A stretch of DNA of 64,000 nucleotides from Parcubacteria group bacterium LiPW_30. GTDB taxonomy: Bacteria > Patescibacteriota > Minisyncoccia > Phycocordibacterales > VMEP01. This document shows positions 1 to 47,474 of the stretch, piece by piece (the first letter of the stretch is position 1; each line of letters opens with the position of its first letter). The notes beneath the pieces were generated by a model. That model was not told where the DNA came from and searched no databases. It was given only the letters and a program-made list of their open reading frames with translations. The DNA lies in the NCBI GenBank assembly GCA_007375595.1, contig VMEP01000001.1, positions 178,816-242,815 of the forward strand, written 5' to 3'. A program made the translations under genes and the position numbers.

Positions 1-897
1 TCTGAGTAAACGTCCCAGAAGAAGTTTGATTTAGTTTAAGGGTTGTATTATTAAAGTAACTAGAGTTTGTCCCCCATTCGAACCAGCGGGTAGTGTTTGT
101 GCTACCATTTGGATCAACAAATCCTTGTAGAATTGCAAAAGTGTCACCATTCTGTACCGTCGAATAAGTCATCACAAAAGGTGTTTGCCCTGTATTTTGA
201 TTACAGTTGTAGTTGTTATAACCACAATTGTAATTGTAATTATTAGTTGTAAAAGACTGAGTTCCACCATAAACAACAGCACTACCTGAATTTTGTCCTA
301 CAGCTCGGTAATAATAGGTTGTATTTTGGTTTAAGGAATTATTAACTGAATAGAATGTTGTATTAACTGTACCAACATTTACTTGTGGGGTGGTGTTTCC
401 AAAGGAATTTGATGTTCCCCACTCAAACCAAACGTTTGTCATGACCCCTCCGTTTGAATTAACAGAACCCTGAAATGTTGCTGAGTTACTGGAGACATTT
501 GTTGGGGCGTTAGTTGTTATTGTTGGAGATGATTGATTTTGATTTTGCTGAGAACAAGAAAGAGTTGATGCGCTTTGGGTATTCGCATAAAAAATATTTT
601 GAGGAGTAGAAGAATCCCAGAAAACCAGCTGATACTGATAAGTAGAGTTACATGGAATATCAACTGTCTCTGAAACAATTTGTGTCCCATTAACAGCAGT
701 GCTTCTTGTTGGTGTTACGGAAGTAGAACCACCACCAATACTATATGAGAAATAGTAACCCGCAGTAGTAGCAACGCTTGACGTTATGTCACCGCGAAAA
801 GTAACACTATCTGCCAGAACAGGGCTCGCAAAAACTCCCGTTGCTAAAACAGTGACTGCGACAAAAAATGCTTTTGTTAGTGTTAGTGATTTTTTCA
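1..897 (-). CDS. secreted Asn/Thr/Ser-rich repeat protein, gene 3' end (C-terminus) truncated by window edge; signal peptide MKKSLTLTKAFFVAVTVLATGVFA; repeated WFEWGT(N/S)S motif
   Basis: Manually translated minus-strand frame is open from ATG at 895-897 to position 1. N-terminal hydrophobic signal. Absent from ORF track because there is no stop in window. Low-complexity N/T/S/Q/Y-rich with internal repeats. Confidence 0.55.
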
Positions 898-999
898 TAT
901 AATTGCTTGGTTTTTTATAATATCAATAATCTATCATAAAACATACAAAAAGTCAATGGGTGGAGAAATTATCTAAACTTAAAGATCCTTGTAAGAAAA

Positions 1000-1043
1000 A
1001 ATACATAAAAAGCAAAAAGGGAGGGCGTAAACGTCCTCCCTTG
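1000..1043 (-). terminator. rho-independent terminator downstream of lipoprotein gene 1087..2067
   Basis: GC hairpin agggagggcg-taaa-cgtcctccct followed on minus strand by a T-run. Confidence 0.45.
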
Positions 1044-1086
1044 TTCCAAACAAAGAACTGTTTTCCTCTTGTCGACAAGGACCCTG

Positions 1087-2067
1087 TTACATGGTCCTGC
1101 CACTGAAGGAAGTTTGTGGCAAAGTTCTGCCACTGAATGACGACTGTGGCAAAGTTCTGCCACTAATCGTCGGTACAACTTGCGGAAAGGTGTTGCCACT
1201 AATCGTCGGTCCGGAAACATACGCTTGCGCCGGCTGAACAACGTACGGAGCGCCGATAACAGCACCGCTGTTCCCGATCCATCCGCTAAAGCCGACGTAG
1301 CCACCGCCGCAACCGTCGTAACAACCACTCGCGACCGCAACAGGCCTTTCCGTGATGACTTCCTTCATCACCACGATGCTCTTGCGATACCAGCCAGTTT
1401 CTGGCGCTTTGGTGGGGCCCGCCACGGCGAAAATCCGGTACTCCTTTTCCACGACCTTGTCTTCCTTGCCGGTTGGCAAGTATGCGATCTCTTTGGCGGG
1501 ATTGCCACAGTCATCGCGTGCGTAGATTTTGAGTTTTCCGTCTTTTACATCAAAACGGAACTTGTCGCCGTCTTTTTGGGCAACCCACTGCCATCCATGA
1601 ACAGTGAACATGTGAACGCAGGCATCCTTTTCAATCGGCATAACCTGACGCCCTTCCCCGTCCGCGGCCGGCAATTTTTTCGAATACTTCGCCTTCGGTA
1701 CATAGTACCGATACTCCCCGCTCTCAAGGGCAGCTAAACACTGCACCTTTTTGTCGAAAGTGTCAACCCCAACCCCTTTGGAAGGAACCGGAGAGACAAC
1801 CTTTGACACCAGCTTGTATTCCGTCTTTCTGGGCAATGCCCCCTCGTTTGAGGGAATGCATTCACCAAGGTTGTTTCCCTTGGTGTCTGCGCGACAGTCA
1901 ACAAACTTGATGCGACCAGAGACTGGGGAACGGCCCCCGTCATTCAGAGGAACTGCCAGAACCGTCTTCGTCGAAGGTTCCGTACTCCCCGTTTTGGTCT
2001 CTATCCCAGCGCAAGCCGAAAGGAAGACCGCCATGAACAATGCCAACAGATTCAATTTGCGTGTCAT
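1087..2067 (-). CDS. lipoprotein (signal peptide with LSAC lipobox) carried on GC-rich island; C-terminal tandem repeats FSGRTLPQ(S/T)S x3
   Basis: 326 aa ORF. N-terminus MTRKLNLLALFMAVFLSAC matches the lipoprotein signal/lipobox pattern. Coding DNA is conspicuously GC-rich relative to the window. No family recognised. Confidence 0.6.
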   Translation of the reverse strand: MTRKLNLLALFMAVFLSACAGIETKTGSTEPSTKTVLAVPLNDGGRSPVSGRIKFVDCRADTKGNNLGECIPSNEGALPRKTEYKLVSKVVSPVPSKGVGVDTFDKKVQCLAALESGEYRYYVPKAKYSKKLPAADGEGRQVMPIEKDACVHMFTVHGWQWVAQKDGDKFRFDVKDGKLKIYARDDCGNPAKEIAYLPTGKEDKVVEKEYRIFAVAGPTKAPETGWYRKSIVVMKEVITERPVAVASGCYDGCGGGYVGFSGWIGNSGAVIGAPYVVQPAQAYVSGPTISGNTFPQVVPTISGRTLPQSSFSGRTLPQTSFSGRTM

Positions 2068-2149
2068 GATGACACCTCCTTTTCAATTTTCAATCGGCAA
2101 GATTGCCGAACTGATTTCTAGCGAAAGACTATCATAATTTTCATGTTTT

Positions 2150-2192
2150 GTCAACACAAAAATTAAAAGGGGTACGATTGCTCGTACCCCTT
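2150..2192 (-). terminator. rho-independent terminator after lipoprotein gene 2213..2695
   Basis: Perfect hairpin ggggtacgattgctcgtacccc, followed on minus strand by ttttaattttt. Confidence 0.5.
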
Positions 2193-2212
2193 GTTTTGCC
2201 CACATGGACACC

Positions 2213-2695
2213 CTAGCAAAGGCTAGGGAACATCGACCAAGTGGACTGACAGCCACGCGGTTGTTGACCACGGGAAGGCTGAATTTGCCCTTGATAACCA
2301 GTGGCGCCGGTTGCGCTTGAGCTTCCTGCAACACCGCTATACGGCGCTGCCGCTTGGGCACAAGCTTCTGGCCGACCGCCATTTTCAAGACACGCGGCGA
2401 TGATTTCTGCTGCCGCCAAACGCCTGGCCGCATCAGCCCGGCCGACCGCGGCTCCGATTTCACTCGGAACCCGTGGCTTGTTGATCAACCGACCTTCGTG
2501 ATTCAGAAACATGCCGTTGCCCCCACTTGTCTTTTCGGGGGTACGACACACTTCTTTGCCGCCGACGATATGGCATTCTTGATCAATGATCACTGGCTCG
2601 TAAGACGTCGTTCGTTCAACCTGTTGCTGTTGGGTTGCACACCCGGCGAGAGCGAGTATCGCCATCACCGATAAAAACATTTTCATCTTGGACAT
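2213..2695 (-). CDS. lipoprotein (MSKMKMFLSVMAILALAGC lipobox), GC-rich island gene 2
   Basis: The ORF track extends to 2863 through AT-rich sequence. The internal ATG at 2695 is preceded by GGAG and followed by a classic lipoprotein signal. Cys-rich mature part. No family recognised. Confidence 0.55.
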   Translation of the reverse strand: MSKMKMFLSVMAILALAGCATQQQQVERTTSYEPVIIDQECHIVGGKEVCRTPEKTSGGNGMFLNHEGRLINKPRVPSEIGAAVGRADAARRLAAAEIIAACLENGGRPEACAQAAAPYSGVAGSSSATGATGYQGQIQPSRGQQPRGCQSTWSMFPSLC

Positions 2696-2965
2696 GGCTG
2701 TCTCCTCTGCGAAATAGTTTAGAAAGAAGCTTTTAAATCTGCCTGTATTATTAGCATGATTTAAATAAAAAGTCAAGTTTTTCTTAATATCCGCCCCTAA
2801 AATGCGCGTATAATTTTCTGCTGAAAATTTACTATACTCGCCTCGCCAGGCTCCGTAATGCATTTTAGAGACGGATATTGGTATTTAAAAGAAAAGAATC
2901 TTGTTACCCTTTAGCCTTTGGGCATCACTAATTTAAAAAATTTAGGTTTTCTAAAAAACTAGGAC

Positions 2966-3051
2966 TTTTCCTTTTTAAAAACATTACGGAGCGCTCGGCG
3001 CAAGTATAGAAAAATTCAGCAGAATTTTATCGTGTTTTTAAAAAGGAAAAG
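2966..3051. repeat. 86-bp element with 18-bp terminal inverted repeats CTTTTCCTTTTTAAAAAC flanking two GC hairpins (copy 1 of 2; MITE-like or structured intergenic RNA)
   Basis: Arms at 2966-2983 and 3034-3051 are exact reverse complements. Interior contains acggagcgctcggcgc and the hairpin aaaattcagcagaatttt. A second copy lies at 7416-7502. Confidence 0.6.
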
Positions 3052-3103
3052 TAAAAAATAAACACCCTTTAGTTTAAAGACAAAATAAAGTATTATTTGA
3101 GGA

Positions 3104-4804
3104 ATGCAAGAATTTGATGATAAAAAACAAGACGACCGTTTATCTTTTTTACGAAAGAAAGAAGAGGAGGATCTTATAAAAATACTATCTGACAAATATG
3201 GGATACCTTACATAGACCTCTCTACTGTTTCAATTGAAGGCGATGCTCTTAAAATAATCTCTGAAGAAAAAGCTCGAGCAGCTGAAATTGCACCATTCCA
3301 GTTAATAAACAAAAAGGCCTTTATTGCTGTTCGCTCCCCTGATCGCAATGACACAAAAATAGCTTTGGAGGAAATTTCTTCAAAAGGATATTTCCCAACT
3401 TTATTTATCACCTCAACGGCAAGCCTAGAACGAGTTTGGGGGCGCTATAAAGAAGTTTCTTTTGCTTCTGAGTCAAAATCTGGACTTCTTGATGTTTCTG
3501 CTGAATTTCTAAACGAAGCATTTGAGAAAATAAAAACAATTCCCGACATAACCAATATGGTTAATGATGTTTTAAGCAAAACTGGTGGACACAAAATATC
3601 GGTGATGTTGGAAATTCTTCTTGCGGGATCAGTTGCTGTTGGAGCATCCGATATTCATATAGAACCAGAGGATGAAAATGTTCATATTAGGGCACGTCTT
3701 GATGGTGTTCTTGAAAACCTTCTCACTATAAACTATGAAACCTACAAACTTCTTTCTTCTAGAATTAAACTACTTTCTGGACTAAAACTAAATGTTAAAG
3801 CTTCTGCTCAAGACGGACGATTCAGTATCAAATTAAACGAAAAAGAAATTGAAATACGTTCTTCTGTTATTCCGGGAGCATATGGGGAATCTTTTGTTAT
3901 GCGTGTTTTAAACCCAGAAAATATTGCTGTCCCATTTGAAGAGTTGGGTGTGAATAAATACCTTTTTGAAATTATTGAGAAAGAACTAAAACGCCCTAAT
4001 GGAATTATCTTAACCACCGGACCAACCGGCTCCGGAAAGACAACAACCCTCTATGCTTTTTTGCGTAAAATTTATTCTCCTGGAAACAAGATGATTACCA
4101 TTGAAGATCCGATTGAGTATCACTTAGAAGGAATCACTCAAACTCAAACAAACGAAGAGAAGGGTTATACCTTCTTGGAAGGGTTGAGGTCAGCCTTGCG
4201 CCAAGATCCAGACGTAATAATGGTTGGTGAAATTCGAGACACCGAAACAGCAAAAATTGCTATTAACTCCGCACTAACAGGACACTTAGTTTTTTCAACA
4301 CTACACACAAACACCGCAGCTGGTGCTATTCCAAGACTAATAGACCTAGGGGTTGATGCTAAAATAATCAGCTCTGCTCTTAATGTCTCCCTTGCTCAAC
4401 GTTTAGCTCGCAAACTTTGTTCTTCTTGTAAAAAAGAATCTCCTGCCACAGACGACGAAAAAAGAATTTTAACTGCCGTTGTCGAGAGAATTAAGGAAGA
4501 GAAAAAGGAGTATGCATTAGAACCAATTGAGTCTCTTCTCCCTGTCACGAATCTTTTCCAACCAGTTGGTTGTGAAAAATGTAACAACACTGGGTTTAAG
4601 GGCCGTGTTGGTATTTACGAAGCAATCCTTACGGATGAAAACATAGAAAAAGCTATCACCGAAAACCCAACAGAGAGAGAATTGAAAAAAGCGAGTTTAT
4701 CGCAAAGGATTCTTGATTTACAAGAAGACGCTACTATTAAAATCATACAGGGAATAACCTCACTTTCAGAAGTTAGTCGTGTTGTCGATCTAGAGGAGGT
4801 CTAA
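3104..4804 (+). CDS. pilB: type IV pilus assembly / type II secretion ATPase, GspE/PilB family (stand-alone paralog)
   Basis: 566 aa. Walker A TTGPTGSGKTTTLYAFL, DPDVIMVGEIRD, and C-terminal CxxC...CxxC tetracysteine motif typical of PilB/GspE. N-terminal GspE-N domain. GAGGA RBS upstream. Confidence 0.85.
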   Translation: MQEFDDKKQDDRLSFLRKKEEEDLIKILSDKYGIPYIDLSTVSIEGDALKIISEEKARAAEIAPFQLINKKAFIAVRSPDRNDTKIALEEISSKGYFPTLFITSTASLERVWGRYKEVSFASESKSGLLDVSAEFLNEAFEKIKTIPDITNMVNDVLSKTGGHKISVMLEILLAGSVAVGASDIHIEPEDENVHIRARLDGVLENLLTINYETYKLLSSRIKLLSGLKLNVKASAQDGRFSIKLNEKEIEIRSSVIPGAYGESFVMRVLNPENIAVPFEELGVNKYLFEIIEKELKRPNGIILTTGPTGSGKTTTLYAFLRKIYSPGNKMITIEDPIEYHLEGITQTQTNEEKGYTFLEGLRSALRQDPDVIMVGEIRDTETAKIAINSALTGHLVFSTLHTNTAAGAIPRLIDLGVDAKIISSALNVSLAQRLARKLCSSCKKESPATDDEKRILTAVVERIKEEKKEYALEPIESLLPVTNLFQPVGCEKCNNTGFKGRVGIYEAILTDENIEKAITENPTERELKKASLSQRILDLQEDATIKIIQGITSLSEVSRVVDLEEV

Positions 4805-4829
4805 TTTTTTACCCAAAGTCTTGAAAAAC

Positions 4830-4860
4830 AAAAAAACACCGATAATTCGGTGTTTTTTGG
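4830..4860 (+). terminator. rho-independent terminator after pilB
   Basis: Hairpin acaccgataattcggtgt followed by a T-run. Confidence 0.55.
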
Positions 4861-5081
4861 AGATAAGAGTACAAACCTCTAAGTAATCCTTTCCGCAAAA
4901 GAGTGGAAAGGGAGAGAGTATCTGCAAGGATAGTCTCAGCAAACACGCAAGCGTGCAACCAAAAACGTCCTCCAAACCCCTCCGGCAAGACACTAGGTCT
5001 CATTACTTAGAGATTTCTGCCCTCATCTAGAAAAGTGCTATAATTAGCTACGTTTCAATAAACTATCATAGTTATTAAAAT

Positions 5082-6134
5082 ATGTCAATAGGAAAAAATC
5101 CCAACACAAAAAGTTCCCTAAAAACAGAGACGGGTAACAAGGAAGAGCGAGACGACTCATTTCTAGATCAAACCCTCCGACCTTCACGTTGGGATGAATA
5201 TATTGGCCAACAAAACATCAAAGAAAACCTAAGAATTCTTTTAACCGCAGCAAAAGAACGTAACCATCCACCAGAACATATTCTTTTTTATGGACCTCCA
5301 GGACTTGGGAAGACAACTCTTGCTTATTTAATTGCCAAAGAAACAGGGGCGCAAATTAAAGTGACTTCTGGTCCCGCGATTGAAAAAGTTGGTGACCTTG
5401 CTTCTATTCTTACCAACCTACTTCCTGGTGATATTCTTTTTATCGATGAAATTCATCGTTTAAATAAAACTATCGAAGAAGTTCTCTATCCTGCTATGGA
5501 ATCTGGCTCACTTGATATCATTATTGGCAAAGGACCTTCCGCTCGCACAATCCAACTTGAGCTCCCGGCTTTCACATTAGTCGCCGCAACCACTCGAATT
5601 GCTTTATTGTCTGCCCCACTTCGCTCTCGTTTCTCTGGAGGAACATTTCGCCTCGAGTTTTATAGCGAAGACGAGATTAAAAAAATTATTGACCGCTCGG
5701 CAAATATTTTGGGAACATCACTTGTAAAAGAAGCTTCTCAAGCAATCGCCAAAAGAAGTAGATTTACTCCGCGTATGGCAAATTATTTACTAAAACGCTG
5801 TCGCGACTTTGCCCAAGTCCACAAAAAATCACTTTCGGAAGAGATAGTTAGTGATGCCTTAAAACTTCTTGGAGTAGATGACCTCGGTCTTTCTTTTTCC
5901 GACCGCCAAATACTTAACGTAATTATTGATAAGTTTAGGGGAGGACCTGTTGGCTTAGGGACAATCGCTGCGGCAACTGGTGAGGAAGAAGCAACAATTG
6001 AAGAAGTCATCGAGCCGTATTTAATTCAACTAGGACTTCTTGAGCGTACTACGAGAGGTCGCGTGGCAACGCCCCGTGCCTACGAACATCTTGGTTTTAA
6101 AATGCCATCAGATATACAAGAAAAACTCATCTAG
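5082..6134 (+). CDS. ruvB: Holliday junction branch migration helicase RuvB
   Basis: 350 aa. AAA+ motifs LFYGPPGLGKTTLA and FIDEIHRL. RuvB C-terminal winged helix. Confidence 0.9.
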   Translation: MSIGKNPNTKSSLKTETGNKEERDDSFLDQTLRPSRWDEYIGQQNIKENLRILLTAAKERNHPPEHILFYGPPGLGKTTLAYLIAKETGAQIKVTSGPAIEKVGDLASILTNLLPGDILFIDEIHRLNKTIEEVLYPAMESGSLDIIIGKGPSARTIQLELPAFTLVAATTRIALLSAPLRSRFSGGTFRLEFYSEDEIKKIIDRSANILGTSLVKEASQAIAKRSRFTPRMANYLLKRCRDFAQVHKKSLSEEIVSDALKLLGVDDLGLSFSDRQILNVIIDKFRGGPVGLGTIAAATGEEEATIEEVIEPYLIQLGLLERTTRGRVATPRAYEHLGFKMPSDIQEKLI

Positions 6135-6369
6135 TAGCTTTTAGGTCATAGCTGTTAGCTAATTAGAAAAACCGAGCTCAACCCCAGCCATATTTTTACA
6201 AAATAATTACTGGCGGGGCGCTTCGCCGTATGAGGATTGTCCTATTCGGACACGCACCCCGCGAGACAAAAATTTACCCAGTGGTATAGTGACATTATTA
6301 CAAAATATAACAGTAAAAATATAGCGGGGTGATGATTTTAATAGTCGTTTCACTCCTTAAAAATCAATC

Positions 6370-6900
6370 ATGTCTGGTCACTCAAAATGGTCTCAAATAA
6401 AAAGACAAAAAGGTAGCGAAGACGCAAAACGTAGTAAAGTTTTTGCGAAACTTGCTCGTGCAATATCCCAAGAATCAAAAAGGGTTAAAGGAGATATTAG
6501 CTCCCCTACTCTACGTGTGATGATTGATAAGGCAAAAAAAGAAAACATGCCTAAAGACACAATAGAGCGCGCCGTTAAAAAAGGAACGAGCGCCGATATG
6601 GGAGAATTATTTGAAGTTATGTATGAAGCTTATGGTCCTGGTGGTTCAGCAATACTTATCGAAGGATTAACCGACAGTAAAAACAGAAGCGCTGCTGAAA
6701 TTAAACATTTACTTTCTTTACACGACGCATCGTTTGCCTCACAAGGAGCTGCTGCTTGGGCTTTTAAAAAAGAAGGAGAGGAGTGGGTTCCACAAACAAC
6801 TGTTCCTCTTTCAGACGAGGATGGAAATAAACTTTCTGTCTTAATTGAAGAACTGGAAGAAAGAGATGACGTTCAGGGTGTTTATACTAACGGAAACTAG
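6370..6900 (+). CDS. YebC/PmpR-family DNA-binding regulator (short form)
   Basis: N-terminus MSGHSKWSQIKRQKG is the YebC family signature. Located between ruvB and ruvC, as in many bacteria. Confidence 0.8.
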   Translation: MSGHSKWSQIKRQKGSEDAKRSKVFAKLARAISQESKRVKGDISSPTLRVMIDKAKKENMPKDTIERAVKKGTSADMGELFEVMYEAYGPGGSAILIEGLTDSKNRSAAEIKHLLSLHDASFASQGAAAWAFKKEGEEWVPQTTVPLSDEDGNKLSVLIEELEERDDVQGVYTNGN

Positions 6901-6912
6901 TATTATCTAATT

Positions 6913-7389
6913 ATGCGTATCATCGCGATTGATCCAGGTCTTGAGAGAGTTGGTATCGCCATACTAGACAAAGAGCGGGGTGGTAAAGAAACTCTTGTTT
7001 TTTCGGAATGTTTTAAAACAAAATCTTCTTTAACACTTTCAGAAAGACTCAACTTAATTGGAGTTCATTTAAACGAGATTATTTTGGAATACAAACCAGA
7101 GGCCCTCGCAATTGAATCTCTTTTTTTCACAACCAATCAAAAGACTGCAATGGTGGTATCTCAAGCTCGTGGAGTTATTATTTACGAAGGTGCTAAAAAT
7201 AATCTTCCCATCTATGAATATACCCCCCTTCAGATAAAAGTAGCTGTCACTGGATATGGAAAGGCCACAAAAACACAAGTTGATTCAATGGTTCAAAAAC
7301 TAATAATCATCTCTAAAAAGATAAAATCGGACGACGAAATGGACGCTGTTGCCATAGGCCTAACCTGTTTTGCCTGCATAAGAAGTTAA
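6913..7389 (+). CDS. ruvC: Holliday junction resolvase RuvC
   Basis: 158 aa. MRIIAIDPGLERVGIAILD with catalytic Asp. Sits in the ruvB-yebC-ruvC neighbourhood. Confidence 0.85.
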   Translation: MRIIAIDPGLERVGIAILDKERGGKETLVFSECFKTKSSLTLSERLNLIGVHLNEIILEYKPEALAIESLFFTTNQKTAMVVSQARGVIIYEGAKNNLPIYEYTPLQIKVAVTGYGKATKTQVDSMVQKLIIISKKIKSDDEMDAVAIGLTCFACIRS

Positions 7390-7415
7390 ACGAGGGTGGT
7401 CAAAATCAAACACGT

Positions 7416-7502
7416 CTTTTCTTTTAAAAAACCTTACGGAGCGCGACGAGCGCGAGTAGAGAAAAACCCAGCAGGGTTCTATCGTGTTTTTTAAAAGAAA
7501 AG
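7416..7502. repeat. second copy of the TIR-flanked GC-hairpin element (arms CTTTTCTTTTAAAAAAC)
   Basis: Same architecture as 2966-3051. Contains ttacggagcgcgacgagcgcgag and a variant hairpin aaacccagcagggtt carrying compensatory changes relative to aaattcagcagaattt. Confidence 0.55.
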
Positions 7503-7645
7503 ATAAAAGACGCCTTATCCACACTTTTTAACTAAAAACATTGCGCTTTTTTTTGTTTTTGATACAACAGTGGGAGTTAGGGGTTTAAATTGAAAAATAT
7601 TGTTTAATTAAATGTGTATTTTATAAATTAAGTTTTTAACTTTAT

Positions 7646-7798
7646 ATGGATGACGAAATGAAGGAACCATTGTCCGAAGAAGCCCTAGATGGCATTTTGG
7701 GAGATGATCTCTTAGGAGATGACGGTCTACCAGATGACCTAGATGCTGATGACCTCGGCAGTGCTCCAATCAGCGAAGAAGACGAAGAAGTTTGGTAG
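7646..7798 (+). CDS. small (50 aa) extremely acidic protein MDDEMKEPLSEEALDGILGDDLLGDDGLPDDLDADDLGSAPISEEDEEVW
   Basis: ATG at 7646, TAG at 7796-7798, followed immediately by a strong terminator. Too short for the ORF track. Composition D/E/L-rich with DDL repeats. Confidence 0.35.
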   Translation: MDDEMKEPLSEEALDGILGDDLLGDDGLPDDLDADDLGSAPISEEDEEVW

Positions 7799-7800
7799 AA

Positions 7801-7829
7801 AAAAGCGGGACAATGTGTCCCGCTTTTTT
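7801..7829. terminator. bidirectional rho-independent terminator between acidic small ORF (+) and tyrS (-)
   Basis: Hairpin agcgggaca-atgt-gtcccgct with flanking A-run and T-run. Confidence 0.55.
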
Positions 7830-9026
7830 CTATTTAATACCGATCTTTATAAATCTTCTTTTACCAACTCGAAGTGTTACCGGGTTTGAAATCTTAAAAT
7901 AAGGATCTGTTATTTTTTCTTCCGTATCCATGTTTAAAACAGCTGACTCTAAGACCAATCTCTTCCATTCATTTTTTGAAGAAATAATTTTTTCTTTAAG
8001 TAACACTTCAACCAAAAGTTCTCCTTTATTAACCGCGACAGAAACTGCATCCTCTGAAACTCCACCCTTCTGGAAGGTCTTAATAAAATCATCTTCAGCT
8101 TCTTTTGCCTTTTTTGCTCCATGATAAAGAGAAACAATTTCTCTGCCGAGCCTCATTTTCGCGTCACGTGGATTTTCACCACTATCAATTGATTCCTTAA
8201 TGCTATTTATTTCCTCATCAGAAAGTCTGGTGCAAAGCGTGAAGTATTTCAAAATTAAATCATCTCGCACCGCCATAACCTTTCCATACATGTCATTTGG
8301 TTCATCTAAAAGATTTATGACGTTTCCCCAAGAAGAAGACATTTTTCTCCCATCTGTTCCCTCTAACATCTGGCAATTCATTATGTCTTGTTCTTCCTGT
8401 CCATAATGTTTTTGAATTGTGCGCCCAGCTTTTAAATTAAACAGTTGATCAAAACCACCAAGCTCAACATCGGCTTTTACAGCAACAGAGTCATATCCCT
8501 GCATCAAAGGGTAAAGAAATTCTCTTAGTGAAATTTCTTCACCTTTTTCAATACGATCAGCGAAATTCCTACGATGCGACATTTGTTGCAATGAAAAACA
8601 CTCTGCCAACTCAGCCACATCGTTAAAATTCAACTTTCTTAGCCATTTCGAATTAAAATGAAACTCTGCTTTTCTTAAATCTAAAACTTTTCCAACCTGA
8701 GCTCTATAATTTTTTAAATTATCTTTTACCTTCTTCGCAGTAAGCATTGGCCTCTTTTCCAATTTGTCTGATGGATCTCCCACTAATGCCGTAAAATCTC
8801 CAACGATAAAAACAACCTTATGCCCAAGATCTTGAAATTCTCGAAGTTTCCATAAAACAATTGCTCTCCCTATGTGTAAAAAAGGAGATGTTGGATCAAA
8901 CCCAAGTTTTACCCTAAGTTGTTTTCCAGAACGAAGCTTTTTTTCTAATGATTCCTTAACAAATACTTCCTCAACTGCATGGCTAAGTAGGTGCTTGATT
9001 TTTTCCTCATCAACGCTAACTTTCAT
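7830..9026 (-). CDS. tyrS: tyrosyl-tRNA synthetase (class I; C-terminal S4-like domain)
   Basis: GFDPTSPFLHIGR (HIGH region), GDFTALVGDPS, YPLMQGYD, GGFDQ and KMSSS motifs. C-terminal LRVGKRRFIKI S4-like tail. Length 398 aa fits TyrS rather than TrpS. Confidence 0.8.
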   Translation of the reverse strand: MKVSVDEEKIKHLLSHAVEEVFVKESLEKKLRSGKQLRVKLGFDPTSPFLHIGRAIVLWKLREFQDLGHKVVFIVGDFTALVGDPSDKLEKRPMLTAKKVKDNLKNYRAQVGKVLDLRKAEFHFNSKWLRKLNFNDVAELAECFSLQQMSHRRNFADRIEKGEEISLREFLYPLMQGYDSVAVKADVELGGFDQLFNLKAGRTIQKHYGQEEQDIMNCQMLEGTDGRKMSSSWGNVINLLDEPNDMYGKVMAVRDDLILKYFTLCTRLSDEEINSIKESIDSGENPRDAKMRLGREIVSLYHGAKKAKEAEDDFIKTFQKGGVSEDAVSVAVNKGELLVEVLLKEKIISSKNEWKRLVLESAVLNMDTEEKITDPYFKISNPVTLRVGKRRFIKIGIK

Positions 9027-9084
9027 ATCGAAAACTTTATCACAAAACCCTTTATTTGTCTTACTGTAAAGGATTTCACATGGT

Positions 9085-11619
9085 ATGCTTAATTTTATGA
9101 AAAGACTCCGTCATCTCTATAAAATAGCCCGTAAACACACAATGAGAAGTTCATTAATTGTGCTGTTTGTTATCGGCGGACTACTGTTTTTGTGGCTTTC
9201 TCAATTCCGCCTCCCAGACTTTAATTCCTTCGAAGAAAGGAAGGTCTCAAATTCAACCAAAATATATGACAGGACTGGCAAAGTTCTTCTTTACGACGTT
9301 CATCAAGGAGTTCGCAGAACGTCGGTTCCTTGGAGCGAAATTAGTGTATATGCCAAAAACGCAACCGTTGCAATTGAAGACTCCGAGTTCTACCAACACC
9401 ATGGAATTAAACCAACAGCTATTGTTAGGGCCGTTTTAGTAAATATTTTTTCTGGGAGCTATTCACAAGGGGGCTCTACGATAACCCAACAAGTTGTAAA
9501 GAACGCCATACTTACCCAAGACAAAAGCATTTCTCGTAAAATAAAAGAGTGGGTCTTATCTTTAAAATTAGAAAGGTCTATGAGCAAAGAAGGTATTCTC
9601 TCTATCTATCTAAATGAAACCCCTTACGGTGGAAATATTTACGGCATTGAAGAGGCAAGTAAATTATATTTCGGAGTAAGCGCAAAGGATTTAACACTGG
9701 CGCAAGCAACATATCTTGCCGCTCTCCCACAGGCTCCAACTTTTTATTCTCCATACGGAAACAATAGAGAAAAACTAGAGAATAGAAAAAATTATGTTTT
9801 GAAAAGAATGTTGGATTTAGGTTTTATAAACCAAGAAGAACATGACAAAGCAAAAAGTGAGGCTGTTGTTTTCCTTCCAAACACAAGCAACAACGCAAAA
9901 GCTATGCACTTTGTTTTTTTTGTTAGAGAGTATTTAGAACAAAAATACGGCCTTGATGCCCTAGAGTCTGGTGGTTTAAAAATAATCACAACGCTTGATT
10001 ATGATCTCCAAAATAAAGCTGAGGAAATTGTTAAAAAAACAGCCCTCTTAAACACGGAAAAATTTAATGCAACCAACGCAAGCTTAGTAGCAATTGACCC
10101 AAAGACAGGGCAAATTCTTGTGATGGTTGGGTCTCGTGATTATTTTGATAAACAAATAGACGGTAATTTTAATATTGCAATCGCCGAAAGACAGCCGGGT
10201 TCTTCTTTTAAACCATTCGTTTATGCAACAGCCTTTATGAAGGGGTACACACCAGATACAATGCTTTTTGATGTAAAAACGGAGTTCCAGACAACTTGTA
10301 CCGCAGAAGGCAACCCTCTTCCGGGAACAAAAGCTGAGGATTGTTATCAGCCAGAAAATTTTGATGGTAAATATTTTGGACCAATGACTATTCGAAATGC
10401 GCTAGCTCAATCAAGAAACGTACCAGCAGTCAAAGCTCTCTATCTTGCGGGAATTCAAGACTCAATTAACACGGCGAGAGTAATGGGAATAAAAAGTCTC
10501 GTTAACGACTCTAGTCGCTATGGACTTACTCTTGTTTTGGGAGGTGGTGAGGTTTCCCTACTTGATATGACAAGCGGTTATTCTGTTTTTGCAAACGGTG
10601 GTATTAGAAATCCATACCAAAGCATTCTTAAAATAGAAGATGCTCAAGGGAAAGTACTCGAGGAATTCAAAGAAAATGGAAGTACGGTAATACCAAAAGA
10701 TATCGCGCTTCAAATCTCAGACATTCTCTCTGATAATAAAGCTCGAGCTCCAGAGTTTGGAGAACACTCTGCGCTATACGTAGAAGGACACGGCGACGTG
10801 GCATCTAAAACAGGTACTACAAACGATTATCGTGACGCTTGGATACTTGGGTATACACCATCACTTGCCGTTGGAGCATGGGCTGGAAACAACGACAATA
10901 GCCCTATGCAAAAAAAGATTGCTGGTTTTATTATTGCACCGATGTGGCATGAATTTATGATGTACGCTCTTGCTTCATCAACCCCAGAACAATTTGAAAA
11001 ACCAAAACCAATTGATTCATCTCTGAAACCAACCCTGCGTGGTGTTTGGCAAGGTGGCGAAGTTTTTGTGATTGATAAAATTTCTGGAAAATTAGCTACC
11101 GAATACACACCAAACGAAACTAAAGAGGAACGAGTTGTAAAAAACCTTCATTCCATTCTTTATTGGGTTTCAAAAAATAACCCAAAAGGAGATGCTCCAG
11201 AAAACCCAGCGGATGATCCTCAGTTTAGATTATGGGAACCAGCTGTTTTAAAATGGGCCCTAAATAACCCAAATCTAGTCACTGGTTACGATAAATCATC
11301 AATTCCAAAAGACTATGACAATGTTCACACTAAAGAAAATATGCCGGTTGTTAAAATAACAGAACCAACAACCCTAAAAACCTATAAGGCCGGAGAAAAA
11401 ATAAAACCAGAAATACAAGTTTCTTCAAGATATAACATTACACGGGTAGATTATTTCTTAAATAACTCTTTCCTTGGCAGTTCTTCGGGTTTTTCAGGTT
11501 TTTCTTTTACCCCACAAGTATCTGATATGAATCCAGAAAATAACACCTTCCGAGTAACTGTTTATGATTCTGTTTACAACAAAACTTCCGCTTCTCAATC
11601 AATAATTATTGATTTTTAG
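9085..11619 (+). CDS. class A penicillin-binding protein (bifunctional glycosyltransferase GT51 + transpeptidase), PBP1A family
   Basis: N-terminal TM anchor. GT51 motifs EDSEFYQHHG and GGSTITQQ. Transpeptidase motifs SSFK (SxxK) and KTGTT. 844 aa with a C-terminal extension. Confidence 0.85.
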   Translation: MLNFMKRLRHLYKIARKHTMRSSLIVLFVIGGLLFLWLSQFRLPDFNSFEERKVSNSTKIYDRTGKVLLYDVHQGVRRTSVPWSEISVYAKNATVAIEDSEFYQHHGIKPTAIVRAVLVNIFSGSYSQGGSTITQQVVKNAILTQDKSISRKIKEWVLSLKLERSMSKEGILSIYLNETPYGGNIYGIEEASKLYFGVSAKDLTLAQATYLAALPQAPTFYSPYGNNREKLENRKNYVLKRMLDLGFINQEEHDKAKSEAVVFLPNTSNNAKAMHFVFFVREYLEQKYGLDALESGGLKIITTLDYDLQNKAEEIVKKTALLNTEKFNATNASLVAIDPKTGQILVMVGSRDYFDKQIDGNFNIAIAERQPGSSFKPFVYATAFMKGYTPDTMLFDVKTEFQTTCTAEGNPLPGTKAEDCYQPENFDGKYFGPMTIRNALAQSRNVPAVKALYLAGIQDSINTARVMGIKSLVNDSSRYGLTLVLGGGEVSLLDMTSGYSVFANGGIRNPYQSILKIEDAQGKVLEEFKENGSTVIPKDIALQISDILSDNKARAPEFGEHSALYVEGHGDVASKTGTTNDYRDAWILGYTPSLAVGAWAGNNDNSPMQKKIAGFIIAPMWHEFMMYALASSTPEQFEKPKPIDSSLKPTLRGVWQGGEVFVIDKISGKLATEYTPNETKEERVVKNLHSILYWVSKNNPKGDAPENPADDPQFRLWEPAVLKWALNNPNLVTGYDKSSIPKDYDNVHTKENMPVVKITEPTTLKTYKAGEKIKPEIQVSSRYNITRVDYFLNNSFLGSSSGFSGFSFTPQVSDMNPENNTFRVTVYDSVYNKTSASQSIIIDF

Positions 11620-11879
11620 TTTATTTCTTTAATTAAATCTGACGTTATTTCGTCTTTAATTAATTTTAATATTCCCTCTTTTTTAATGTAAATAATACTT
11701 TTCTCCTTTGAATTACAAGAGATGGTGACTGTTTTTTTATTTATTTTTATACTTTTTTTATCTAAAACAACACCTGTTTCTTTTTTTACCACTTCAATTA
11801 TTACATCGAGAATGGCCTCTTTTTCTAAAATTGTTTTTTTTATTTTATCAAAAAGTGACCCAAGGTTATTTAAATTCAT
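11616..11879 (-). CDS. small Lys/Ile-rich protein immediately downstream of dnaN; possibly a DUF721 (DciA-like) family member
   Basis: 87 aa ORF abutting the dnaN stop. Position matches the conserved dnaA-dnaN-(small DUF721) synteny. No motif confirmation. Confidence 0.4.
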   Translation of the reverse strand: MNLNNLGSLFDKIKKTILEKEAILDVIIEVVKKETGVVLDKKSIKINKKTVTISCNSKEKSIIYIKKEGILKLIKDEITSDLIKEIN

Positions 11880-11880
11880 T

Positions 11881-12981
11881 TTATCTATTCATTGGCATCA
11901 CAAGGTAAAGAAAGGAACTATCTGAAACATTCTTAATAATTAAAGGTTTTGAGTTTCCATTAAACTGTAATACTAAACTGTCCTGTGTGATGGATTGAAA
12001 ACAATCAAAAATATATCTATAGTTAAAATTAACTTCCACTTCTTCCCCTGAAATAGCCGCTTCAATATTCGTATCTGTTTCACCAACATCTTGATTTTTT
12101 GTTTTTATTTTTAATTGTTTTGTTTTTGGCGATACTAAAAAAGAAACTTGGTTAAATTTATCAAGAAAAGTGTTACTTAATTTAAAAGCGTTAACGATAT
12201 CTTGTTTTAAAACAACAGCCTCTGTTTTTTGTTCCTTGGGAATTATTTGTTGGTAGTCAGGAAAAACACCGTCTATTAATCTAGATGTTATATAAACACC
12301 ATCAAAAGAAATTGATATTTGGTTTTTTGTTGTTTTAATTAAAAGTAAACCATCTGTATTTTCTGTTATTTTTACTATTTCTGTAATGTTTTTAAACGGA
12401 ATAATAACGCCATTAAAATCACTAATGGTTTTTGTTTTTATTCTCTTTTCAGCTAAACGGAATGAATCTGTTGAAACAAAAATTAATTCATTATTGTTTT
12501 GATAAATATAAACACTCGCTATTTCCGGTTTTATTTCTGTTGTGGCAGAACTATAAAAAACATATTTTACACCTTGGTTGAAAATTTTTGATTCTATTTC
12601 AAAAGACACCCCAGTTGTAATTGTTGGTATTGTTGGAAAATCATTATATGGATAACATTTTATTACTGTTTTATTATTTTTTGTTGTAACTACTATATTT
12701 TCATTTACTTCCTCTAGTAAAACATTCTTTTCATTCTGTATTCCTGATAAAAAATTATTTAAAACACTTCCTTTAATAGCTAATATTCCTTCTTTTTCTA
12801 TTTTTGCTGGGATTTCGATTTCTACACCTAAATCGAGATTTGTTGCTCTTATTTTTAAAGTCTTTCCATTTGCTATCAAAAGGACACAACTTAAAACATT
12901 TAAAGTTAAATTTTTACCAGTAATTTTCTCTGCAATAGAAATTGCATTTTTAATTTTTTCAACTAAGCATTCTACTTTCAT
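11881..12981 (-). CDS. dnaN: DNA polymerase III beta sliding clamp
   Basis: 366 aa with three-domain clamp architecture. Immediately downstream of dnaA. Confidence 0.85.
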   Translation of the reverse strand: MKVECLVEKIKNAISIAEKITGKNLTLNVLSCVLLIANGKTLKIRATNLDLGVEIEIPAKIEKEGILAIKGSVLNNFLSGIQNEKNVLLEEVNENIVVTTKNNKTVIKCYPYNDFPTIPTITTGVSFEIESKIFNQGVKYVFYSSATTEIKPEIASVYIYQNNNELIFVSTDSFRLAEKRIKTKTISDFNGVIIPFKNITEIVKITENTDGLLLIKTTKNQISISFDGVYITSRLIDGVFPDYQQIIPKEQKTEAVVLKQDIVNAFKLSNTFLDKFNQVSFLVSPKTKQLKIKTKNQDVGETDTNIEAAISGEEVEVNFNYRYIFDCFQSITQDSLVLQFNGNSKPLIIKNVSDSSFLYLVMPMNR

Positions 12982-13218
12982 AGTATTAGTATTTATTTAA
13001 AAGAATATGATTATTATAATGAGCCTGTTGATATGTGGAAAAGTTTAAAAAACCTATATTAAATAATGATGTAATATTTTTTTTAAACATACTTAATAAG
13101 TTAATAAGTGAATAATTATAAATAATAACTTCTTGGGTTTTTAATGAAATATTATTTTTTGTGTTTTTTATTAACTTCATATTATTTACTTATCAACAGT
13201 TTTTCCTTAAGTTAAAAA
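12982..13218. promoter_or_regulatory. AT-rich dnaA-dnaN intergenic region with DnaA-box-like 9-mers (candidate oriC segment)
   Basis: Very AT-rich 237 bp. TTATCAACA (8/9 to TTATCCACA) near 13187-13195 and atgtggaaa near 13035. Conserved position of oriC between dnaA and dnaN. Confidence 0.35.
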
Positions 13219-14568
13219 TTAAAATAATGCTTTGATTTGTTCTAATTCTTGTAGTAAAGAATTGTCTGTTTTTATTTCTTTTTTTATTTTTTCACAAGAA
13301 TGGATAACAGTTGTGTGATCACGGCCACCCATTTTTTGTCCAATAGAAGGATAAGAAATATCAAACTCTTCTCTTAAGATGTACATAGCTACTTGTCTTG
13401 GTTTAACAACATCTTTTCTCCTGGTTTTTTCATAAACACTAGCCTCTTCAATGTTATAAAAATCAGCAATTATCTTAACAACATCTTTTACAGCCATATT
13501 TTTCTTAGGTTTTATGTTGTTTTTTAAGAGATTTTTTATTTCATACAAGGAAAGATCTTTGTTTTTTAGTTTTGTGTGGCAAATAACAAGGTTTAAAGCC
13601 CCTTCAAGCTCTCTAATGTTTCCTTGAATAAGCGAAGCAATATACTGCATTACTTCTTCTGGTGGGTAAAAATTATTTTCTTTCGCTTTTGCCGACAAAA
13701 TTGAGAGCCTAGATTCATACTCTGGTTGGCCGACATCAACTGTCATGCCAGCTCCAAAACGCGACTTCAAGCGTTCTTCTAGGTTTGGGATAAAGTTTGG
13801 GTGCACATCTGAGGAAAAAATAATTTGTTTGTTGTTGTCGTAAAAGGCGTTAAAAAGGTGGAATAATTCCTCTTGGGTTTTATCTTTGTTTGATAAAAAC
13901 TGAACATCATCAACAATAAGAACATCATATTTTCTATATCTTTCTTTAAAGGCAGGTATTTTATTTGCCTGCATTGAAGTAACAAAATCAACTGAAAATT
14001 TTTCAGATGTTGTGTAAAAAACCTTACGATTGTTATGTTTTGTTTTTAAAGTGTTCCCTACTGATTGAATAAGGTGTGTTTTTCCTAAACCAGTGCGACC
14101 ATAAATAAAAAGAGGGTTATAGGCCATTCCTGGTTTTTCAAGTACTGCTTGTGCAGCGCTGTAAGCAAGTTCATTAAAAGAACCAATAACAAAAGAATCA
14201 AAAGTGTAACGAGGGTTTAAGTTATCTTCTTTGTTTATGTATAAATCTGCCAAAGGAAGCTCGCGAAGAAGTGGAGATTTTGAAAGATCGGCAATTACAG
14301 TTTTTGGTTTTTCGCCAATATTTTTTACAACAACGTACTCGACCCCTCTAACGAATTCAGAGGTATCACGCATCTTTTGTAAAATAAATTTGTGATACTT
14401 GTTAAATATCCAATCTTTAACAAACTCGTTAGGAACCCCAACAAAGACAATACCCCCCTCTTCTTTTACAATGTCTGTGTTTTTAAACCATGTACTAAAA
14501 TTTGCTTTTGAAACATGAAGCTCTACTTCAAGAAGTGTATTTGTCCAAAGGTTTTTTAAGTCGAGCAT
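13219..14568 (-). CDS. dnaA: chromosomal replication initiator DnaA
   Basis: 449 aa. AAA+ Walker A GRTGLGKTHL, Walker B VDDVQFL, and C-terminal DNA-binding signature MGGRDHTTVIHSCEKI. Confidence 0.9.
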   Translation of the reverse strand: MLDLKNLWTNTLLEVELHVSKANFSTWFKNTDIVKEEGGIVFVGVPNEFVKDWIFNKYHKFILQKMRDTSEFVRGVEYVVVKNIGEKPKTVIADLSKSPLLRELPLADLYINKEDNLNPRYTFDSFVIGSFNELAYSAAQAVLEKPGMAYNPLFIYGRTGLGKTHLIQSVGNTLKTKHNNRKVFYTTSEKFSVDFVTSMQANKIPAFKERYRKYDVLIVDDVQFLSNKDKTQEELFHLFNAFYDNNKQIIFSSDVHPNFIPNLEERLKSRFGAGMTVDVGQPEYESRLSILSAKAKENNFYPPEEVMQYIASLIQGNIRELEGALNLVICHTKLKNKDLSLYEIKNLLKNNIKPKKNMAVKDVVKIIADFYNIEEASVYEKTRRKDVVKPRQVAMYILREEFDISYPSIGQKMGGRDHTTVIHSCEKIKKEIKTDNSLLQELEQIKALF

Positions 14569-44891: not shown

Positions 44892-45010
44892 GCAGAGGGA
44901 GAATCGAAAGCCGGAGCGCGACGGTGCGAGGCGGGCTTAATTGCGATAAGTGAAACAATTGAGAGACGGAGGCTGACGAGCCGAGTTGGGGTCGCTAATA
45001 TTACGGACAA
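44892..45010 (+). repeat. tRNA-tail element copy 2 (13-nt antisense of tRNA-Gly(GCC) T-arm + core + ~100 nt identical to copy 4; right end degenerate)
   Basis: gcagagggagaatcgaa then agccggagcgcgacggtgcgaggcgggcttaattgcgataagtgaaacaattgagagacggaggctgacgagccgagttggggtcgc, identical to 47340-47438. Confidence 0.65.
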
Positions 45011-47331: not shown

Positions 47332-47474
47332 GCGGGATGGGAGAATCGAAAGCCGGAGCGCGACGGTGCGAGGCGGGCTTAATTGCGATAAGTGAAACAA
47401 TTGAGAGACGGAGGCTGACGAGCCGAGTTGGGGTCGCCGAAGCAAATTATCCGTGACCGATTCCCATCCCGCAC
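47332..47474 (+). repeat. tRNA-tail element copy 4 (19-nt exact antisense of tRNA-Gly(UCC) 3' end + core + body shared with copy 2 + near-exact sense copy of tRNA 3' end)
   Basis: gcgggatgggagaatcgaa is the reverse complement of ttcgattctcccatcccgc. Right end cgtgaccgattcccatcccgcac. Confidence 0.7.

Follow-up and report, generated by a model that had tools for sequence, protein, structure and literature searches.

A 1.6-kb patch of GC-rich DNA in a 64,000-nucleotide stretch of Parcubacteria group bacterium LiPW_30 (contig VMEP01000001.1, positions 178,816 to 242,815 of the forward strand; the whole stretch is hereafter called the window) encodes two predicted lipoproteins, a large one (LIPO-L) and a small one (LIPO-S). 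An initial annotation had taken this patch, or island, to be a recent horizontal acquisition of surface lipoproteins from a GC-richer host or partner organism. We find instead that the lipoprotein pair and its GC-richness are older than the split of all of the relatives that we found, and that the pair has been vertically inherited. The reading that we favor, with moderate confidence, is that of an ancestral, vertically inherited array of cassettes encoding fast-evolving surface lipoproteins, mosaic in structure and with a GC-rich composition that is maintained at equilibrium. The two genes are:

1087..2067, minus strand: LIPO-L, 326 aa, N-terminus MTRKLNLLALFMAVFLSAC, with the ribosome-binding site (RBS) AGGAGG upstream
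2213..2695, minus strand: LIPO-S, 160 aa, N-terminus MSKMKMFLSVMAILALAGC, lipobox LAGC, with the RBS GGAG upstream

Composition of the island

The abrupt GC-rich island in AT-rich surroundings that had been described by eye was borne out by windowed GC content, which was 53.1% for positions 1087-2695 and 37.9% for the remainder of the window; this is the GC-richest 1.6-kb stretch within the 64 kb, more than 4 standard deviations (SD) over the mean (mean 38.3%, SD 3.4). The codon usage does look foreign, as had been suggested: GC content at third codon positions (GC3) is 0.60 in LIPO-L and 0.53 in LIPO-S vs. a mean of 0.294 (SD 0.042, maximum 0.41) for the 51 other open reading frames (ORFs) of the window, i.e., 7.3 and 5.7 SD higher, respectively, with both C and G elevated at third positions. 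Overall gene GC is about 0.535–0.537 for LIPO-L and about 0.561–0.562 for LIPO-S, the background coding GC being 0.388. Strongly over-used codons are CGG, CTG, GGC, CCG, ACG, and AAG, and codons that are near-absent from the genome are common in the island (CGG 24% vs. 2%, CTG 20% vs. 2%, plus NCG codons); as several of the favored codons are nearly unused by the genome, selection toward codons that are common there seems an unlikely cause. Ala, Gly, Pro, and Cys abound in the island proteins, which if encoded with the average codon usage of the genome would have a GC of 0.44 (LIPO-L) and 0.485 (LIPO-S); amino-acid composition accounts for just over one third of the GC excess of LIPO-L and just over half of that of LIPO-S, the remainder being the synonymous choice of GC-ending codons. 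The GC-richness does not extend beyond the two ORFs: the spacer and untranslated regions (UTRs), minus their hairpins, come to 35.5–37% GC (~180 nt).

Conservation of the pair in related genomes

LIPO-L and LIPO-S are part of a conserved gene order, which runs pilB, LIPO-S, an optional lipoprotein gene (102–131 aa, in some lineages only), LIPO-L, a gene for a large secreted repeat protein that we call Big, tsaE, and polA. This order from pilB to polA recurs in the related loci L001, L004/5, L008/9, L010, L014, L015, and L111, which come from independent samples held by NCBI, JGI, ENA, and Logan. The GC-rich pair occupies the same slot in all eight relatives (L111, L009, L105, L001, L015, L005/L004, L014, and L010), so that a patchy presence among close relatives, as the recent-acquisition proposal would have it, was not found. 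The island genes of these relatives have a GC of 0.51–0.59 and a GC3 of 0.48–0.60, and their flanking genes have a GC3 of 0.24–0.33 (0.38–0.51 in the somewhat GC-richer L010). The closest relative is L111, with 95% DNA identity and 98.6% PilB identity to the window.

A search of 5.8 billion proteins identified homologs to the two proteins in 8 and 15 clusters, all without annotation. All of the homologs that cover most of the query and have a visible context lie in the slot between pilB and Big; the sole exception outside it is P0008 (L012), which matches only 29% of LIPO-L at 46% identity. The homologs of LIPO-L are 38–93% identical and syntenic, and LIPO-S is restricted to a genus-level clade. 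All of the homologs that bear a name are labelled Patescibacteria or Paceibacterota, and no GC-richer host or partner was found as a donor. PilB proteins of at least 93% identity occur in just two GTDB species representatives and the next relatives are at 58% (Nomurabacteria, Zambryskibacteria, Paceibacterota), which makes the clade roughly a genus of Paceibacteria. We observed in passing that many third-party-annotation (TPA) records of metagenome-assembled genomes (MAGs) that are Paceibacteria by PilB and gene order, including L016 and L017, are titled 'uncultured Candidatus Saccharibacteria bacterium', and that some Shapirobacteria-like TPA MAG records are titled 'uncultured Gammaproteobacteria bacterium'; such titles are unreliable as taxonomy.

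Divergence and compositional equilibrium

Synonymous divergence (dS) of the island matches that of its flanks. Between the window and L009, dS was 0.50 and 0.29 for the two island genes and 0.42 for Big; between the window and L001 it was 1.02 and 1.09 for the island, 0.88 for Big, 0.91 for PilB, and 1.04 for RuvB; and between L005 and L014 it was 0.75 and 0.41 for the island and 0.51 and 0.62 for the flanks. The ratio of non-synonymous to synonymous divergence (dN/dS) was 0.09–0.46 in the island vs. 0.02–0.08 for Big, PilB, RuvB, and PolA and up to 0.13 for TsaE, non-synonymous divergence (dN) in the island being ~3–10x that of the flanks. It is due to this raised dN that the island proteins are merely 38–62% identical between genomes with ~90% housekeeping identity. 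The synonymous sites of the island thus turn over at the pace of the flanks, yet GC3 stands at ~0.5–0.6 vs. 0.27.

Whether this composition is fading or stationary was judged from synonymous third-position changes, polarized by parsimony in rooted triples. Under a neutral model, with AT-biased mutation toward a GC3 of ~0.27 from ~0.58, about three GC-to-AT changes are expected per AT-to-GC change; simulation on trees of the observed depth, with the same parsimony polarization, gave ratios of 2.5–3.7 for neutral decay (closer trees) and ~1.1 for a stationary sequence. In the island this ratio was 0.71–0.95 in six of the seven rooted triples, with an implied equilibrium GC3 of 0.51–0.65, near the present values. 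The six balanced triples span three independent species groups (window/L009/L105, L005/L101/L014, and L001/L015), and the share of changes expected under neutral decay (74% GC-to-AT) was rejected in each of them (p ≤ 0.008). The cleanest close triple (L005 and L101, with L014 as the outgroup) had an implied equilibrium GC3 of 0.57 in the island, where the current value is 0.49, and of 0.26 in the flank, where it is 0.28. As AT-to-GC and GC-to-AT synonymous changes balance, the composition is a maintained equilibrium and not the fading signature of a transfer. By a hand calculation, pure decay with a per-lineage dS of ~0.5 since the split of the window and L001 would need an ancestral GC3 greater than 1.

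Recent differences that are AT-biased combined with older substitutions that are balanced are what one expects under a weak GC-favoring fixation bias that opposes mutation (compare PMC2936529 and PMC4450053). In the island the older synonymous changes are balanced and the youngest are AT-biased, a pattern that a GC fixation bias and selection both predict. A back-of-envelope estimate of the population-scaled coefficient, from GC3 values of 0.27 vs. 0.57, is ~1.3. 

Mosaic structure and the variable slot

Different parts of LIPO-L have discordant histories. Its signal peptide and C-terminal ~100 residues track the phylogeny of the flanks (window–L001 dS 0.26 and 0.90, respectively), and its central module falls into two deep allele classes that cut across that phylogeny (window–L001 dS 1.87, dN 1.05). 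Class A is found in the window, L111, L009, L105, L005, L014, and the wider family, and class B in L001, L015, and L010; a hidden Markov model (HMM) of the class A domain does not detect the class B module, and homology between A and B is thus unproven. This discordance between modules (dS 0.26/1.87/0.90), together with an alternative 3' end of LIPO-S in L111, is a sign of intragenic recombination. Judged from these alignments, the locus is a recombination mosaic.

The slot also gains cargo. Between pilB and LIPO-S, L111 has an extra 435-nt EamA-like cassette (2339-2773; GC 0.54, GC3 0.655) encoding a 144-aa membrane protein (PF00892, weak match); a hairpin and a further copy of the conserved promoter (CTTGACTTTTTATTTAAATCATGCTAATAATA) belong to the cassette, the promoter being present on both sides of the insertion. 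The cassette also occurs at L016 291-725 and in L112 and L113, and is an insertion polymorphism; it is the only patchy element among the close relatives. Homologs of it that are 73–79% identical belong natively to Paceibacterota genomes with 53–55% GC (L114, L116), where their context is conserved, and from this we conclude that the cassette is a genuine recent intra-phylum transfer into the slot. The proposal that GC-rich genes arrive here from GC-richer relatives therefore holds for the EamA-like cassette (L111, L016) and fails for LIPO-L and LIPO-S. A replacement of the lipoproteins by the EamA-like gene in L016 was considered and rejected: the 93-kb contig L111 shows the insertion upstream of them, and L016 ends early.

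In distant Paceibacteria (PilB 52–59% identical) we also observed GC-elevated ORFs directly 5' of pilB, with a GC3 of up to 0.70 vs. 0.3–0.5, several of which bear signal peptides or lipoboxes:

L034, 3004-5634
L035, 5139-5918
L036, 4167-4772
L037, 2822-3496
L038, 5398-5862
L053, 5006-5860
L026, 3812-5812

Seven GC-elevated ORFs were scanned (L034–L038 and L053; the L026 ORF was left out) and gave no Pfam family and no match to the LIPO-L domain HMM. The slot next to pilB may itself attract or maintain GC-rich surface genes.

The LIPO-L domain family

LIPO-L consists of a signal peptide with the lipobox LSAC, a linker, and an alpha/beta domain of ~110 aa (residues ~95–205; motif YARDDCGNP, allele class A), followed by the conserved segment ETGWYRKS..GCYDGCGGG and a Gly/Ser/Pro-rich C-terminal tail. 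An exhaustive phmmer search matched residues ~95–205 to a domain of ~100 aa in at least 148 clusters at 50% identity, with the consensus ..F.SK..C..AL.SG.F.YY.PK..G...KNPVDG.T.V..PLE.DACV.M.TV.G..WVVQ..GT.FR.....DG.L..YARDDCGNP. The proteins that bear it are 200–500 aa long, secreted or lipoproteins, and have Gly/Pro-rich tails, several with C-terminal membrane anchors. The domain is not covered by Pfam, and a profile of it had no match among PDB sequences. AlphaFold2 modeled the domain (34-sequence alignment) as one helix and six strands with a predicted local distance difference test score (pLDDT) of 90 and a predicted template modeling score (pTM) of 0.80, and a Foldseek search of this model against PDB and BFVD returned nothing at E ≤ 0.001; the model of full-length LIPO-L (8-sequence alignment) was unusable (pLDDT 31). 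A lead to the polymorphic-toxin domain Ntox17 (PF15524) was set aside as chance, as it matched one of 34 domain sequences (E = 0.001, 18 bits vs. a cut-off of 25) and left the window protein unmatched.

GC-richness is seen throughout the sampled family. Distant members are GC-richer than their own contigs in all 11 independent contexts sampled with flanking DNA, by 0.03–0.08 in the four GC-richest backgrounds and by 0.10–0.18 in the others. In L096 a member sits in the same slot between pilB and Big, beside a PilB that is only 57% identical, with a GC of 0.59 vs. 0.44 and a GC3 of 0.68 vs. ~0.42; in L098 a member in an unrelated context has a GC of 0.53 vs. 0.35; the excess is 0.08–0.13 in L099, L104, and L108; and the L012 member has 0.52 vs. 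0.47. GC-rich backgrounds behave likewise (L102 0.57 vs. 0.53, L107 0.70 vs. 0.61). A degenerate DNA pattern for YARDDCGNP identified 12 loci, of which seven have a family member and one, L109, a marginal match (E = 0.002); an in-frame scan of L100, L106, L109, and L110 found no matching ORF. The neighbors of a member are visible in six lineages, and in four of these it lies between the gene for the type IV pilus ATPase and that for a large surface protein.

The two proteins, their signals and their neighbors

The description of two minus-strand lipoprotein genes, with lipoboxes LSAC and LAGC and a terminator hairpin each, proved correct, as did the statement that neither belongs to a recognized family. 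With a basic n-region, a hydrophobic h-region, and a lipobox ([LVI][ASTVI][GAS]C), both are predicted to be bacterial lipoproteins; the lipobox Cys is invariant across the LIPO-L alignment and near-invariant in that of LIPO-S (≥90%; one row is truncated N-terminally). No Pfam or NCBIfam family scored above threshold for either protein, and scans of LIPO-L, LIPO-S, the optional middle lipoprotein, and the class B allele against Pfam, NCBIfam, PADLOC, and PHROGs gave signal-peptide-level matches only. For LIPO-S, homologs favor the start at 2695 over the ATG at 2863 of a longer ORF. The Ala-rich core of LIPO-S (PRIPSEIGAAVGKADAARRLAAAEIIAACL..GGRPEAC) is invariant, the motif PRGCQSTW.MFPSLC lies at the C-terminus, and a profile of the protein had no match among PDB sequences. 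At its C-terminus (window 2216-2260) the motif PR.CQSTW.MFPSLC is invariant, Cys being the final residue in 15 of 16 homologs, and the alternative C-terminal allele of L111 (..CDIYWGAVKGICR) likewise has two Cys; this Cys pair may be a candidate for a disulphide-closed terminal loop.

Features within and around the island are:

2..898, minus strand: 5' part of Big, a secreted repeat protein of ~653 aa with faint PhoD_N/fn3 matches; GC3 0.26; conserved left neighbor
1019..1043, minus strand: intrinsic-terminator hairpin of LIPO-L, -19.5 kcal/mol, z -3.6, then the T-run TTTTTGCTTTTT
1085..1210, minus strand: tandem repeats of 30 nt (10 aa) encoding (F)SGRTLPQ(S/T)S at the LIPO-L C-terminus, 2.3 clean and 4 degenerate copies
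2068..2212, minus strand: spacer between LIPO-S and LIPO-L, with the LIPO-S terminator hairpin, a TTGACA box, and the LIPO-L RBS; GC 37% when the hairpin is left out
2167-2192, minus strand: terminator hairpin of LIPO-S, -25 kcal/mol, z -3.8, then a T-run
2736..2789, minus strand: cassette-array promoter CTTGACTTTTTATTTAAATCATGCTAATAATA, with -35 TTGACT and a TG-extended -10, kept in all relatives
3104..4804, plus strand: pilB, type IV pilus ATPase of the T2SSE family; GC3 0.28; conserved, divergently transcribed right neighbor

The C-terminal repeat of LIPO-L is a tandem repeat as first described, with a period of 30 nt over 1085-1210 in place of the ~27 bp then given, and relatives differ in having three to four copies of the motif. 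A search for flanking direct repeats at the island borders yielded only two promoter-like 25-mers, 72% identical, at 932-956 (5' of the gene for Big) and 2752-2776. There is no tRNA within 1-12000 and no integrase or transposase gene among the neighbors. An Rfam scan of 1-5000 gave no match at E ≤ 1, and thus no sign of the island as a structured RNA.

The sharp AT-rich border of the island had been placed against an element with terminal inverted repeats; the edges are indeed sharp, and the element is a separate, unrelated palindromic repeat of ~90 nt (2964-3052, 5' of pilB) whose inverted arms of 20 nt match perfectly and are separated by 49 nt. Another copy, at 81.5% identity, lies at 7417-7508, 3' of ruvC, and at the equivalent spot L016 has a different repeat (973-1043) with relatives at window 47377-47448 and 44935-44994. 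These palindromic intergenic repeats of ~70–90 nt look like elements of the miniature inverted-repeat transposable element (MITE) or repetitive extragenic palindromic (REP) type that vary between strains. The intergenic region between pilB and LIPO-S (2786-3052) holds four nested inverted-repeat pairs in all, 2786-2805/2860-2879, 2810-2830/3010-3030, 2850-2865/2977-2992, and 2964-2983/3033-3052.

Antisense ORFs of 185, 128, and 106 aa overlie the island in the window. In L004 (2159-2890, plus strand) the public gene call is a 72-aa ORF on the wrong strand and the LIPO-S orthologue is intact (HMM E = 2e-86); we ascribe this to GC-rich DNA in an AT-rich genome giving long antisense ORFs that mislead gene callers. 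The window also has an outlier in the opposite direction, ~2 kb at 11500-13500 with just 24–26% GC, where a 366-aa ORF (11881..12981, minus strand) has a GC3 of 0.15.

Weighing the explanations

In the reading that we favor, the locus would be an ancestral array of self-contained cassettes, each with a promoter, an ORF, and a terminator hairpin, in a variable slot between pilB and the gene for the large secreted repeat protein. Its GC would most likely be upheld by GC-biased fixation tied to unusually frequent recombination and allele shuffling at the locus, whether through biased gene conversion, through GC-rich allele segments brought in repeatedly, patch by patch, from Paceibacterota at large, or through both. 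We favor such recombination-linked fixation because the locus is visibly recombinogenic and because unrelated cargo in the slot is also GC-rich. LIPO-L would display its variable alpha/beta domain on the cell surface. Its probable role there is to make contact with a cell, be it a partner or a host, or with some other exposed target that is under diversifying pressure; this is suggested by the lipoboxes, a domain-plus-stalk layout, rapid evolution, and the conserved neighborhood of a pilus ATPase and a large secreted repeat protein.

Several points weigh against parts of this reading. The island edges are sharp, with no GC gradient reaching into pilB or Big, and the background GC of the non-coding parts of the island speaks against gene conversion; those parts are short and carry promoter, RBS, and terminator functions. 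The seventh and shallowest triple (the window and L111, with L009 as the outgroup) has a GC-to-AT excess of 2.08 (n = 37; p = 0.35 for neutral decay), which we read as unpurged recent mutations and which ongoing amelioration would resemble. Parsimony polarization is biased, and each triple offers 20–57 changes. The surface display and contact role draw on the lipobox, the architecture, and the neighbors, and neither sequence nor structure searches gave the island proteins a relative of known function.

The main rival, which we consider unlikely though still to be taken seriously, is that selection on the coding sequence or mRNA maintains the GC, and not recombination; variants of it are slow, rare-codon translation for lipoprotein export or low expression, a stable GC-rich transcript, or the avoidance of AT-rich cleavage or termination motifs. 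It fits a shift that is confined to the ORFs, with UTRs and spacer at background and sharp borders, and for a property that follows the gene family into unrelated genomic contexts; the genome-rare codons CGG and CTG that are so common here run against translational optimization. Against this, dS is not below that of the flanks, which leaves room only for a weak constraint on composition alone, neither an Rfam match nor a conserved RNA structure was found, and a locus effect too is indicated by the EamA cassette and by the GC-elevated ORFs in this slot in other Paceibacteria, none of them related to the island genes. A related idea, to which we give a low probability, is that this Patescibacteria surface-gene family has an intrinsic, heritable need for GC-rich DNA or RNA that shifts the GC3 equilibrium by ~0.3 whatever the site or genome composition; such a need could serve a locus-specific mechanism of diversification or recombination, analogous to but distinct from that of the Borrelia vls system, or an mRNA-level function specific to these episymbionts.

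A single ancient transfer from a very GC-rich donor into the ancestor of the clade, incompletely ameliorated and with no maintaining force, appears improbable. Islands can remain compositionally distinct over long periods of amelioration, GC-rich Paceibacterota exist and carry LIPO-L family members (L102, L107), and the GC-to-AT excess of 2.08 in the shallowest triple fits such decay. However, the six deeper triples are balanced and reject it, a neutral model would need the ancestral GC3 above 1 noted earlier to leave 0.55–0.60 today, and the same GC3 is seen in lineages with saturated synonymous sites and is high too where PilB is 57% identical. An ancient horizontal origin, even if it occurred, would not explain the persistence of the composition.

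It is very improbable that the locus is an expression site like Borrelia vls, in which the central domain of LIPO-L is swapped by gene conversion from silent cassettes and high GC is needed for this. What would suit it is that the surface lipoprotein is GC-rich within an AT-rich genome and keeps its ends conserved while the central module is swapped, but tblastn found no second copy or fragment in the window or in the 20-kb related loci, the coding-strand GC skew of the two genes is 0.13 and 0.08 with unclustered G-runs vs. a skew of 0.52 for vls, and close relatives differ by ordinary point substitutions (dN/dS about 0.1).

We give still less credence to the idea that the window's lineage recently acquired the pair from a host or partner of higher GC, despite the foreign-looking composition and codon usage and the fact that in sister strains the same slot did gain an EamA-like gene whose source was GC-rich Paceibacterota. 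Equally GC-rich orthologues occupy the locus in eight of eight related lineages with dS equal to that of the flanks and without compositional decay, no close homolog lies off-slot among the 5.8 billion proteins except the partial P0008, and the island has no integrase, no tRNA, and no border repeats beyond the promoter-like 25-mers. An assembly chimera or contamination that joined a GC-rich fragment into an AT-rich contig, which the abrupt switch in composition might suggest, is excluded by the recurrence of the same junctions, promoter, and gene order in eight or more assemblies that differ in study and source (NCBI, JGI, ENA, Logan).

Significance and comparison with known systems

In small AT-rich genomes, stretches of unusual composition are routinely called recent horizontal transfers, e.g., by island-prediction tools. 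The textbook-looking island described here is old, syntenic, and compositionally stationary, and such calls can err systematically for at least one Patescibacteria surface-protein family. As a ~1.6-kb region with an equilibrium GC3 of ~2x that of its immediate neighbors in many independent lineages, the locus is a compact natural test of the GC-favoring force in bacteria, setting biased gene conversion against selection. The uncharacterized domain family, with a confidently predicted fold and no structural match, is a candidate cell-contact determinant of these episymbionts.

The Borrelia vls cassettes have 49% GC vs. 28.6% for the genome, and this GC content is conserved across species, which has been read as strong maintaining pressure (PMC11499132). 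The island resembles vls in being a surface lipoprotein gene with a GC far over that of its AT-rich genome and with a variable center between conserved ends. It differs in that no silent cassette array was found in the window or the related loci, in its weak GC skew without clustered G-runs, and in the lack of any sequence relationship; the variation of the island, known here from comparison across lineages, is seen between lineages as allele classes.

For bacterial genes with intragenic recombination, Lassalle et al. 2015 (PMC4450053) describe higher GC and GC3, independent of codon-usage selection, with recent mutations that are AT-biased and long-term substitutions that are more balanced. 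The island resembles such recombination-associated GC enrichment, or GC-biased gene conversion, in its intragenic recombination and in its AT-biased recent and balanced older changes, a pattern that selection would give too; unlike it, the effect in the island is very large for one locus (GC3 +0.25–0.30), stops at the ORF ends, and follows a gene family into unrelated contexts.

In the literature we found no described GC-rich lipoprotein locus in Patescibacteria, and a survey of horizontal gene transfer (PMC12455944) makes no mention of one. With classical horizontally acquired islands the locus shares its anomalous composition and codons, its surface-protein cargo, and a hot-spot slot with the EamA insertion polymorphism; it differs from them in lacking mobility genes, tRNA, and repeats resembling attachment (att) sites, and in that its genes are present in all relatives, co-diverge with the flanks, and give no amelioration signal.

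Streamlined bacteria and archaea have hypervariable surface regions, in which envelope genes that evolve fast and differ between strains sit in a fixed slot with conserved core flanks; a reported example is the cell-wall-associated genomic island of Haloquadratum walsbyi. The slot of the island is similarly fixed, with variable envelope genes flanked by conserved core genes, and such regions are, to our knowledge, not defined by a GC content that stays elevated. We class the locus as a hypervariable surface-protein locus with a maintained, family-wide GC-rich equilibrium and an uncharacterized domain family.

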